Part shown: positions 18,214 to 19,809 of the stretch, piece after piece
Position numbering within the stretch: position 1 is the stretch's first letter
How the letters are laid out: each line of letters opens with the position of its first letter
NCBI RefSeq assembly: GCF_003334355.1
Contig: NZ_QOWP01000003.1
Length of the DNA stretch: 64,000 nt
DNA from: Escherichia coli
GTDB lineage: Bacteria; Pseudomonadota; Gammaproteobacteria; Enterobacterales; Enterobacteriaceae
Strand: one strand, 5' to 3'
Notes under the pieces: model-generated
What the model saw: only the letters and a program-made list of their open reading frames with translations
The model's database searches: none
What the model was told of the DNA's origin: nothing
Made by a program: the position numbers and the translations under genes

Positions 18214-19809
18214 CTACAAGTCTAACGACCGCTTCCACAACATAAAATCAAACTGTTCGAGTTTGTCTGCCTTCACGACGTAGTCCTTACTGGCAGTTTC
18301 AATAACTTTTTCAAATAATTCTCTACTCACATCTTCCAGCGGAGTGCCGTCAATCACTGGGCCACAGTCGAAATCAATCATGTCAGACAATCGTCTGGCA
18401 ATCGTGCTGTTGGTGGATATTTTTAACACCGGAACAATCGGGTTACCGGTGGGCGTACCAAGACCCGTCGAGAAGATAACCACATTACATCCTGCTGCTA
18501 CCAATCCGGTTACCGCGTCCACGTCATTGCCCGGAGTACACACCAACGATAATCCACTATCGGGCATAGGTTCAGCGTAATCGCATACACTCACAATTGG
18601 CGCTCGCCCGCCTTTTTTCGCTGCTCCGGTAGATTTTATTGCGTCAGTAATCAACCCATCCGCGATGTTGCCAAAACTTGGGTTATCCGCAATGGTGGTA
18701 TCGAAAAAGTTCGCTGTCTTTTCGTAGCCTTGCATTAGATTGAGGAACTTTTTTTTATCCTCAAGATTAATACAACGCTTAACCATATCACCTTCTGCCC
18801 CACATAATTCTGGAAATTCTGCTAACCCGGAAGCGCCACCAAGCGTTGTCAACCAGTCAGAAACCAGCCCCATTGCAGGGTTGCCGGAGATACCAGAAAA
18901 ACCATCGGAACCACCACACTTCATCCCCACTTTGAGACAGGAAAGAGGGACCTCTACTCTTTCTGTCGGCTTCACCGCTTTCATTGCCTCGAAAGTCTGC
19001 TGTAAAGCGGTCTGCATCATCCGCTCTTCGCTGTCCCACTCCTGTTGGAGAAAGTAGAGCGCAGGTTTATCAAATTCAGGATTACGTCTCGCCAGCGCAT
19101 CCTTAAACATTTTCTGCTGCGCTTTTTCACATCCTAAACTGAATACCGTCATACCGATTACATTCGGATGGTCAGCATAAGCAGCTAATACATCGCACAT
19201 AGTTTCACAGTCTGAAGTTGCACCACCACAACCACTGGTGACCGTAATACAGCGAACACCTTCAATATGCGGAAACATTCTCGCGGTTTCGATCAGTTCA
19301 TCGCTACCGGACGTCAGATTAAGAGCAAACTTTTTCAGTGAGTTATTGGTATAACCCAAAGCATCATTCAAAGCATTGGTTAACGTACTGACATTACGGT
19401 TCTCGCAAAATACCAATGGAAAGACTAACCAGTAACTGGCAGTACCCACTCTGCCATCGTCACGGACATAACCTTTAAAAGTGCGGGTGCTCCATTCAGA
19501 GACATCCGGTGCCTGCCAGTGGTAGGGTTCAACATCCTCCAGTGTGACAGGAGCTGCATAGTGGCGAATATTATCAACGGTAATCGCTTCTCCCTTAACG
19601 ATGGGACGCGTGGCCTTGCCAACTGGCGTACCGTACATCGAAACAATGCCATCCAGAGGAATATCTTGCGTCGCAAACTTATGTTTAGCCTTAACATCAG
19701 TTACTAACGTTATGTTGTCGTCATCCCACGAGAACGATTCTCCAGCGTGCAGGTCTTTCAACGCGACAATGAGATTATCGTTACTGTCGATACGTAATAT
19801 TTTTTGCAT
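18214..19809 (-). CDS. UxaA/GarD-family sugar-acid dehydratase (altronate/galactarate dehydratase-like; SAF N-domain plus dehydratase C-domain)
   Basis: About 531 aa; collinear with altronate dehydratase as I recall it (N-terminal MQKILRIDSNDNLIVAL…, central CGGSDG…NP, C-terminal GNDxDAVTGLVAAGCNVVIFSTG). Probable start at the second ATG (19807-19809), which has the better Shine-Dalgarno spacing. AT-rich. Confidence 0.8.
   Translation of the reverse strand: MQKILRIDSNDNLIVALKDLHAGESFSWDDDNITLVTDVKAKHKFATQDIPLDGIVSMYGTPVGKATRPIVKGEAITVDNIRHYAAPVTLEDVEPYHWQAPDVSEWSTRTFKGYVRDDGRVGTASYWLVFPLVFCENRNVSTLTNALNDALGYTNNSLKKFALNLTSGSDELIETARMFPHIEGVRCITVTSGCGGATSDCETMCDVLAAYADHPNVIGMTVFSLGCEKAQQKMFKDALARRNPEFDKPALYFLQQEWDSEERMMQTALQQTFEAMKAVKPTERVEVPLSCLKVGMKCGGSDGFSGISGNPAMGLVSDWLTTLGGASGLAEFPELCGAEGDMVKRCINLEDKKKFLNLMQGYEKTANFFDTTIADNPSFGNIADGLITDAIKSTGAAKKGGRAPIVSVCDYAEPMPDSGLSLVCTPGNDVDAVTGLVAAGCNVVIFSTGLGTPTGNPIVPVLKISTNSTIARRLSDMIDFDCGPVIDGTPLEDVSRELFEKVIETASKDYVVKADKLEQFDFMLWKRSLDL

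Follow-up and report, generated by a model that had tools for sequence, protein, structure and literature searches.

A strain-variable four-gene island of Escherichia coli with a divergent UxaA/GarD-type dehydratase and a predicted pathway for L-fuconate or a related sugar acid

The window analyzed here, a 64,000-nucleotide (64 kb) stretch of an Escherichia coli contig (NZ_QOWP01000003.1), contains at positions 18214-19809 a gene for a sugar-acid dehydratase of the UxaA/GarD superfamily, which a first-pass annotation made from the DNA letters had singled out as a paralogue of altronate dehydratase. We find that this gene is not a lone paralogue but a member of a four-gene accessory island, in which an IclR-family regulator stands divergent to an aldolase, a major facilitator superfamily (MFS) transporter and, as the last gene, the dehydratase. 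By its sequence, the dehydratase is a third, divergent UxaA/GarD-type sugar-acid dehydratase of E. coli, an orthologue of neither of the two canonical enzymes. The island is best explained as a self-contained, horizontally acquired sugar-acid utilization operon, whose products very probably dehydrate an acid to its 2-keto-3-deoxy form and split that into pyruvate and an aldehyde. Comparative evidence points to L-fuconate, or to D-arabinonate of the same configuration, and on balance we favor L-fuconate as a physiological substrate of the island.

The open reading frame (ORF) of the dehydratase extends over 18214..19815 of the minus strand in the ORF list, and translation of 18214-19809 yields an unbroken 531-residue protein with the N-terminus MQKIL. 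A second in-frame ATG lies two codons further 5', at 19815, and a GGAAGA Shine-Dalgarno-like sequence precedes both start codons. The frame is intact, and the strand, which the first-pass annotation had left unstated, is minus. The same coding sequence in a genome of 100% identity goes in RefSeq under the name 'UxaA family hydrolase' (WP_001412128.1). Pfam recovers SAF over residues 11-82 (4e-11), GD_AH_second over residues 113-279 (1e-30) and GD_AH_C over residues 290-527 (3e-83), an architecture that assigns the protein by sequence to the UxaA/GarD superfamily (COG2721). The two motif blocks quoted in the first-pass annotation are found in the translated protein as KCGGSDGFSGISGNP (residues 297-311) and PGNDVDAVTGLVAAGCNVVIFSTGLGTP (residues 426-453). 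Four cysteines, C135, C194, C227 and C298, are invariant in 19 members of the clade (alignment A1) and line up with cysteines of UxaA. In the superfamily member C785_RS13685 the four conserved cysteines C134, C173, C208 and C276 have been proposed as iron ligands (PMC6336799). The chemistry expected of the superfamily is Fe2+/Mn2+-dependent dehydration of a sugar acid to the 2-keto-3-deoxy acid, and an iron-dependent reaction of this kind is predicted for the E. coli protein.

In BLASTP the dehydratase is collinear with K-12 UxaA over 509 aa (33% identity, 2e-81), which agrees with the full-length collinearity given in the first-pass annotation, and with K-12 GarD over 517 aa (29% identity, 1e-56). 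It also matches the GarD crystal structure (PDB 6u7l) at 4.5e-51, and its sole NCBIfam match is the GarD equivalog TIGR03248, at 221.7 bits under a cut-off of 730.85. With 33% identity to E. coli UxaA (EC 4.2.1.7) it does not qualify as a UxaA orthologue, and both identities lie far below the greater than 90% that the first-pass annotation had named as a sign of simple redundancy, so its proposal of an additional paralogue was sound. Its placement of the canonical genes elsewhere was likewise right: each belongs to the core genome and lies at another locus, uxaA being present in 5420 and garD in 5400 of 5426 complete E. coli genomes, and no second UxaA/GarD-family member was found in the 64-kb window. 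Like UxaA and GarD, the new enzyme has the three-domain architecture of the superfamily, its four cysteines and the CGGSDG motif; it differs from them in identity, locus, operon context and clade. The characterized D-arabinonate/D-idonate dehydratases C785_RS13685 and Pden_4928 are 67% identical to each other; the island enzyme is about 27% identical to C785_RS13685, and C785_RS13685 and GarD about 34% to each other, both values being computed with an error-laden copy of C785_RS13685 derived by optical character recognition (OCR). Known substrates of the UxaA family include D-arabinonate, L-fuconate, L-galactonate and D-altronate, all of which share a common configuration at C2-C4 (PMC6336799). 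The statement of the first-pass annotation that the substrate is not evident from sequence holds as far as the sequence alone is concerned; gene context in relatives considerably reduces the choice, to acids of the L-fuconate/D-arabinonate type, with D-altronate as the main rival.

The boundaries of the island follow from BLASTN comparison with K-12, in which the flanking matches end at 18132 and resume at 23271, such that the island stands in place of 16 bp between two core genes (Table 1). Its GC content is 44%, as against 51% for the window. With presence counted at a coverage of at least 80%, it occurs in 513 of the 5426 complete genomes (about 9.5%), each copy being at least 99.3% identical, and has been found in NCTC86 and in human, canine, chicken and bovine isolates, among others; the segment 17500-21200 of the window is 100% identical to several complete E. 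coli genomes. Three 'plasmid' records with the island (H51-H53) were rejected as evidence of plasmid carriage, being non-mobilizable molecules of 4.9 Mb or 655 kb, probably whole or partial chromosomes that were deposited under the label of plasmids. Insertion sequence (IS) elements interrupt the island or its edge in several strains (ECONIH4, L001 13992-15220; hits H1, H2, H3, H12 and H13): IS2 separates the aldolase gene from the IclR gene, and IS5, IS1 or ISKpn26 lie within or close to the MFS gene and yjfI, which suggests that the module is undergoing inactivation in some lineages.

The best solved relative of the island aldolase, a protein of the dihydrodipicolinate synthase/N-acetylneuraminate lyase (DHDPS/NAL) family, is E. 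coli YagE (3.3e-48, 32% identity). The GSTGE(F), PYY and GMKDT motifs, the second with the active-site tyrosine and the last with the Schiff-base lysine, are kept relative to YagE and invariant in 23 members of the lineage, and the protein falls under the NCBIfam cut-offs for DapA, NanA and KdgD. We predict from these features a 2-keto-3-deoxy-acid aldolase that releases pyruvate and an aldehyde. KdgD, a decarboxylating dehydratase, was considered for this gene and rejected, since the model scores are low, no semialdehyde dehydrogenase is present and the protein is closest to YagE. Among the K-12 proteins the closest paralogue of the transporter is YfaV of the L-rhamnonate cluster, at 51% identity; LgoT, GarP, DgoT and ExuT are only 21-27% identical to it (ExuT 22%, GarP 24%). 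This makes it a predicted importer of 6-deoxy-aldonates or aldonates. The regulator is 72% identical to that of a related module in Morganella.

Comparison of the spacer between the divergent genes across species reveals a palindrome, TTGTTTGTATATATGAACAA, which recurs in the same position as GTTTGTATATATGAACAA in Morganella (L003) and TTCGTATATACGAACAA in Klebsiella (L009); the conserved form is TTYGTATATAYGAACAA (L003 about 5690-5715, L009 about 7700-7725). As the palindrome is conserved in place amid otherwise divergent spacers, it is a plausible, indeed probable, operator of the island IclR regulator. A promoter element, TTGACTCA, is also conserved in Morganella and Klebsiella, and a hairpin with a T-run probably marks the end of the operon.

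Table 1. Features of the island and its flanks in the 64-kb window
Feature	Position	Strand	Basis
UxaA/GarD-superfamily sugar-acid dehydratase, 531 aa, 'long-form' clade	18214..19809	-	translation, Pfam, BLASTP, alignment
MFS transporter, anion:cation symporter type, 433 aa	19843..21144	-	TIGR00893 subfamily match, 257 bits, below cut-off
DHDPS/NAL-family class I aldolase, 297 aa	21195..22088	-	closest solved relative YagE
IclR-family regulator, 266 aa, divergent	22396..23196	+	NCBIfam IclR models BhcR, KdgR, PcaR, all below cut-off
Palindrome TTGTTTGTATATATGAACAA, 21 bp 5' of aldolase start codon	22110..22129	.	inter-species comparison
Promoter-like TTGACT-16-TATACT, 10/12 matches, 5' of aldolase-MFS-dehydratase	22154..22181	-	consensus scan
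Terminator-like hairpin and T-run just 3' of dehydratase stop codon	18177..18200	-	consensus scan only
Accessory island, 5138 bp, in yjfI-rlmB spacer	18133..23270	.	BLASTN vs K-12 junction
yjfI, core flank gene	17623..18024	-	K-12 comparison, annotation
rlmB, core flank gene	23273..24004	-	K-12 comparison, annotation

The dehydratase falls in a 'long-form' clade of tightly conserved proteins about 531 aa in length, with close homologues in Leminorella (88%), Morganella and Providencia (80-81%), Yersinia intermedia (78%), Commensalibacter (73%), Sodalis (72%) and Klebsiella (70%). A contig scan for relatives recovered at least 600 stretches, mostly from Bacteroidota and Betaproteobacteria rather than Enterobacterales. 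The gene neighborhoods of the relatives fall into three kinds. In the first, which is that of the E. coli island, the dehydratase is linked to the aldolase and an acid transporter, usually with the IclR regulator, as in Morganella (81%), Klebsiella (70%), Sodalis and Commensalibacter (73%), the last being without the regulator; the aldolase module also occurs on human-gut metagenome contigs, and the aldolase shares contigs with more distant dehydratases in Acetobacteraceae, Telmatospirillum and metagenome-assembled genomes of Deltaproteobacteria. In Klebsiella sp. BIGb0407 the dehydratase frame looks disrupted (L009 10001-11596), leaving an ORF of 400 aa only, and it adjoins, on the opposite strand, a membrane-bound pyrroloquinoline quinone (PQQ)-dependent dehydrogenase of the glucose/quinate family (11725-14103), which could produce aldonic acids in the periplasm.

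The second kind of neighborhood is a complete oxidative L-fucose cluster, of which the long-form enzyme is the sole dehydratase in Neisseria sp. Ec49 (L090, 63% identity) and Ignatzschineria (L091, 61%). Both clusters contain genes for L-fucose dehydrogenase, FucP, RhaM and an L-fucono-1,5-lactonase-like amidohydrolase, which in Neisseria follow the dehydratase; there the dehydrogenase model NF052481 gives 404 bits (over its cut-off of 300), FucP 317 bits (over 280) and the lactonase 349 bits, under the cut-off of 400. An iron-containing alcohol dehydrogenase (Fe-ADH) and a DHDPS-family protein are found in the Neisseria cluster and not in that of Ignatzschineria. Contexts of the L-fucose type recur in a dozen loci of Bacteroidota, Halomonadaceae and Acidobacteria. 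By position, these nearest relatives with fully informative contexts appear to be L-fuconate dehydratases. In Orbus hercynius the cluster has the order IclR-MFS-dehydratase-DHDPS-Fe-ADH. Its Fe-ADH is an orthologue of lactaldehyde reductase (704 bits, above the cut-off of 537) and shares 71% identity with FucO of E. coli, its transporter is 71% identical to that of the island, and its DHDPS-family protein shares 58% identity with its counterpart from the complete fucose cluster.

In the third kind the dehydratase stands between uxaC and a Mannitol_dh (UxaB-like) gene, followed by an ExuT-like gene and with or without GH28 and PfkB. Examples come from Massilia, Janthinobacterium and Silvimonas (53-58% identity) and, at 45-48%, from many Bacteroidota. 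The hexuronate-linked dehydratase in the retrieved loci of Betaproteobacteria and Bacteroidota is a member of the 'long-form' clade rather than an E. coli-type UxaA, and the clade has repeatedly switched between hexuronate and fucose contexts. Neither uxaC nor uxaB was found within 10 kb on either side in any genome carrying the aldolase module.

The aldolase provides a further line of comparison. The nearest out-group of the E. coli type (45-48% identity) lies in Clostridium and Fusobacterium, in clusters (L096, L098, L099) with a divergent IclR gene followed by KdgT, a small SAF subunit, a large GD_AH subunit, a fumarylacetoacetate hydrolase (FAH)-family protein and the DHDPS-family protein, together with an Fe-ADH that in Fusobacterium passes the lactaldehyde reductase equivalog (672 bits against the cut-off of 537). 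These clusters look like a version of the same kind of module with a split, heteromeric UxaA-type dehydratase and an added FAH-family protein. A DNA-pattern scan of metagenomes for the motif of the E. coli-type aldolase returned 32 loci, nearly all of them module copies of the E. coli (about 100%) or Klebsiella-like (66-70%) type, and these 32 gave no fresh clue to the substrate. One 51%-identical aldolase relative (L105 3157-10819) is accompanied by a TRAP transporter, a split transketolase, a 2-hydroxy-3-oxopropionate (tartronate-semialdehyde) reductase and a short-chain dehydrogenase/reductase; that locus has no UxaA-type dehydratase and looks like a different acid-sugar pathway.

A neighbor-joining (NJ) tree gives 100% bootstrap support both to the proteobacterial long-form clade and to the hexuronate clade of the Betaproteobacteria. 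In 71% of replicates the E. coli clade clusters with the fucose-linked enzymes and Orbus; in none of the 200 does it cluster with the uxaC/uxaB-linked betaproteobacterial clade.

Taken together, these observations suggest how the island might work. Family memberships, the structure and distribution of the island and the neighborhoods of its relatives were directly observed; from them we infer which substrate is used, whether the operon is repressed or activated and what becomes of the aldehyde. The YfaV/RhmT-like MFS symporter would import L-fuconate (6-deoxy-L-galactonate), most probably, and possibly also accept D-arabinonate, which has the same C2-C4 configuration. The iron-dependent UxaA/GarD-type enzyme, a predicted L-fuconate (or D-arabinonate) dehydratase, would then remove water across C2-C3 to give 2-keto-3-deoxy-L-fuconate, which the Schiff-base aldolase would split into pyruvate and L-lactaldehyde, or, starting from a pentonate, into pyruvate and glycolaldehyde. 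Disposal of the aldehyde could fall to AldA or FucO of the core genome, and the IclR protein, bound to the conserved palindrome, would hold the operon repressed for as long as no inducer is present. The pairing of the dehydratase with a DHDPS-family aldolase and an IclR regulator, as expected for such a pathway, is found in the island itself.

Several points weigh against assigning L-fuconate. The island has no L-fucose dehydrogenase, L-fuconolactonase or FucP, and in the absence of the dehydrogenase and lactonase the link to fucose rests on relatives of 61-63% identity. Its aldolase is not orthologous to that of the fucose cluster (32-34% identity), and relatives of 53-58% identity sit clearly within uxaC-uxaB-exuT-kdgK clusters. 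The bootstrap of 71% comes from a simple NJ tree, in which, moreover, fucose-type and hexuronate-type contexts are interspersed among the Bacteroidota. Between the 41 uxaC/uxaB-linked and the 14 fucose-cluster-linked long-form enzymes no alignment column separates cleanly, with each group at least 80% conserved for a different residue, and hence there is no sequence signature by which to assign the E. coli enzyme. The specificity of the long-form enzymes may be broad or easily switched. A literature search found no paper on the E. coli island.

FucO-type reductases act on glycolaldehyde as well as on lactaldehyde, so the aldehyde reductases of the related modules do not separate D-arabinonate from L-fuconate. 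D-arabinonate or another pentonate could be the main substrate, the 2-keto-3-deoxy-D-pentonate being cleaved to pyruvate and glycolaldehyde in a Dahms-type pathway like those of yjhHG and yagEF, whose 2-keto-3-deoxyxylonate (KDX) aldolases YagE and YjhH also adjoin IclR-family regulators. We regard this as unlikely. The characterized D-arabinonate dehydratase C785_RS13685 appears to be of a different subfamily, at about 27% identity on the noisy OCR sequence (PMC6336799), the closest paralogue of the transporter belongs to a 6-deoxyhexonate cluster, and the nearest relatives whose clusters are fully resolved have FucP and an equivalog of L-fucose dehydrogenase in them. If the pathway is promiscuous, the pentonate and L-fuconate may both be true substrates.

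The hexuronate contexts of the 53-58% identical betaproteobacterial relatives and of many Bacteroidota genes, and the annotation of YagE as a 2-dehydro-3-deoxygluconate aldolase, are what one would expect if the island encoded a second D-altronate dehydratase, which would serve to convert imported D-altronate or a close hexonate to 2-keto-3-deoxygluconate (KDG) for cleavage by the YagE-like aldolase to pyruvate and D-glyceraldehyde. It is, however, quite unlikely that this is the role of the island, as the genomes with the aldolase module show no linked uxaC or uxaB and E. coli already possesses UxaA, KdgK and Eda. No bootstrap replicate unites the E. coli clade with the hexuronate-linked one, and the transporter is far closer to the L-rhamnonate-cluster carrier (51%) than to ExuT (22%). 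Finally, the related modules are accompanied by orthologues of lactaldehyde reductase and not by enzymes of glycerol or glyceraldehyde metabolism.

There is a slim chance that the substrate is another acid of the same configuration, such as L-galactonate, which would yield pyruvate and L-glyceraldehyde, or an acid outside those considered. L-galactonate is a substrate of some UxaA-family members (PMC6336799), the E. coli-type aldolase forms a lineage of its own, and one dehydratase relative of 66% identity has a KdgT-type carrier in place of the MFS transporter. Against this, no L-galactose or L-galactonate genes appeared in any context examined, and the recurrent partners are lactaldehyde reductases. 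A GarD-like galactarate/glucarate dehydratase, acting with a KdgD-type 5-dehydro-4-deoxyglucarate dehydratase instead of an aldolase, is extremely improbable: the galactarate dehydratase model is the sole NCBIfam match of the dehydratase and the DHDPS-family protein weakly matches KdgD models, but both scores are far too low (221.7 against 730.85 bits for GarD, 85-88 against 278-374 for KdgD), alpha-ketoglutarate semialdehyde dehydrogenase is absent, and the identities to GarP (24%) and GarD (29%) are small.

Some observations concern the surroundings of the module. YjfI, a DUF2170 protein (17623-18024), matches the model of the Pseudomonas biofilm regulator BacA at 93.6 bits, under the cut-off of 300. 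Elsewhere in the window Rfam identifies an RpsF leader (3038-3122), two tRNA genes (40625-40697 and 40858-40930) and a Guanidine-II (mini-ykkC) riboswitch (56433-56479). In Morganella the region a few kb upstream from the module (L003 1-3559) holds a CBASS-like defense cluster with an SMODS/DncV-like nucleotidyltransferase, ThiF, JAB and SAVED.

It is quite possible, and we put it forward tentatively, that the module is dedicated to scavenging L-fuconate in about 10% of E. coli and in Morganella, Providencia, Klebsiella, Yersinia, the insect-gut Orbaceae and Commensalibacter. The L-fuconate could then come from fucose-oxidizing microbes, C. jejuni being known to accumulate it, and possibly from a host L-fucose dehydrogenase. 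If true, this would define an acid-sugar cross-feeding niche in colonization of the gut or urinary tract, apart from the classical fucPIK pathway. In over 500 complete genomes of the best-annotated bacterium these genes bear only generic names, such as 'UxaA family hydrolase' and 'dihydrodipicolinate synthase family protein'. An assignment would bring a strain-variable carbon source into E. coli metabolic models, supply a function for a widespread aldolase lineage and for a family of RhmT-like transporters, and tie E. coli and several opportunistic Enterobacterales to a mucus-derived pool of oxidized fucose. What the island offers is a solid prediction of function, open to test, for a locus that varies among E. 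coli strains, and no new principle.

Among known systems, the island bears comparison with the cj0480c-cj0489 locus of Campylobacter jejuni for L-fucose and D-arabinose, which comprises the IclR repressor FucR, the DapA-like aldolase Cj0481, the UxaA' proteins Cj0482/0483, the MFS protein Cj0484 and further genes (PMC6946681, PMC12566272). Compared by family, both are divergently regulated clusters that join an IclR regulator to an aldolase of the DHDPS family, a dehydratase of the UxaA type and an MFS transporter, and both follow a non-phosphorylative logic, from the acid through the 2-keto-3-deoxy acid to pyruvate and an aldehyde. The E. coli island differs in that its dehydratase is a single chain of 531 aa and in that it lacks L-fucose dehydrogenase, lactonase, mutarotase, FucP and aldehyde dehydrogenase; without sugar-oxidizing genes, it would have to start from the acid and not from the sugar.

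Within E. coli, the yfaX-rhmD-yfaV-yfaU cluster of K-12 for L-rhamnonate likewise combines an IclR-type regulator, a dehydratase, an MFS transporter (51% identical) and an aldolase, and it resembles the island in operon logic and, as far as predicted for the latter, in the end products of a 6-deoxyhexonate, pyruvate and L-lactaldehyde. Its dehydratase RhmD, of the enolase superfamily, and its aldolase YfaU, which we take to be of the HpcH class II family, are unrelated to the island enzymes, and the regulators are 27% identical. The systems of the 2-keto-3-deoxy-D-xylonate/gluconate aldolases YagE/YjhH, with the dehydratases YagF/YjhG and the regulators XynR/YjhI, share with the island the aldolase family (32% identity for YagE) and the nature of an accessory-element operon with IclR-family regulator, dehydratase, aldolase and transporter; they differ in that their dehydratases are of the IlvD/Edd family and their transporters of other families, the island aldolase being a separate lineage. 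A non-phosphorylative 'Route II' pathway is reportedly described in a study of Veillonella. Such a route also occurs in Bifidobacterium (PMC6817895). The type of pathway is thus known, from C. jejuni and Bifidobacterium, and E. coli has analogous acid-sugar islands in rhm, yjh and yag; what appears to be new is an E. coli version of predicted function that would start from the acid, with a distinct aldolase lineage and an RhmT-like carrier.

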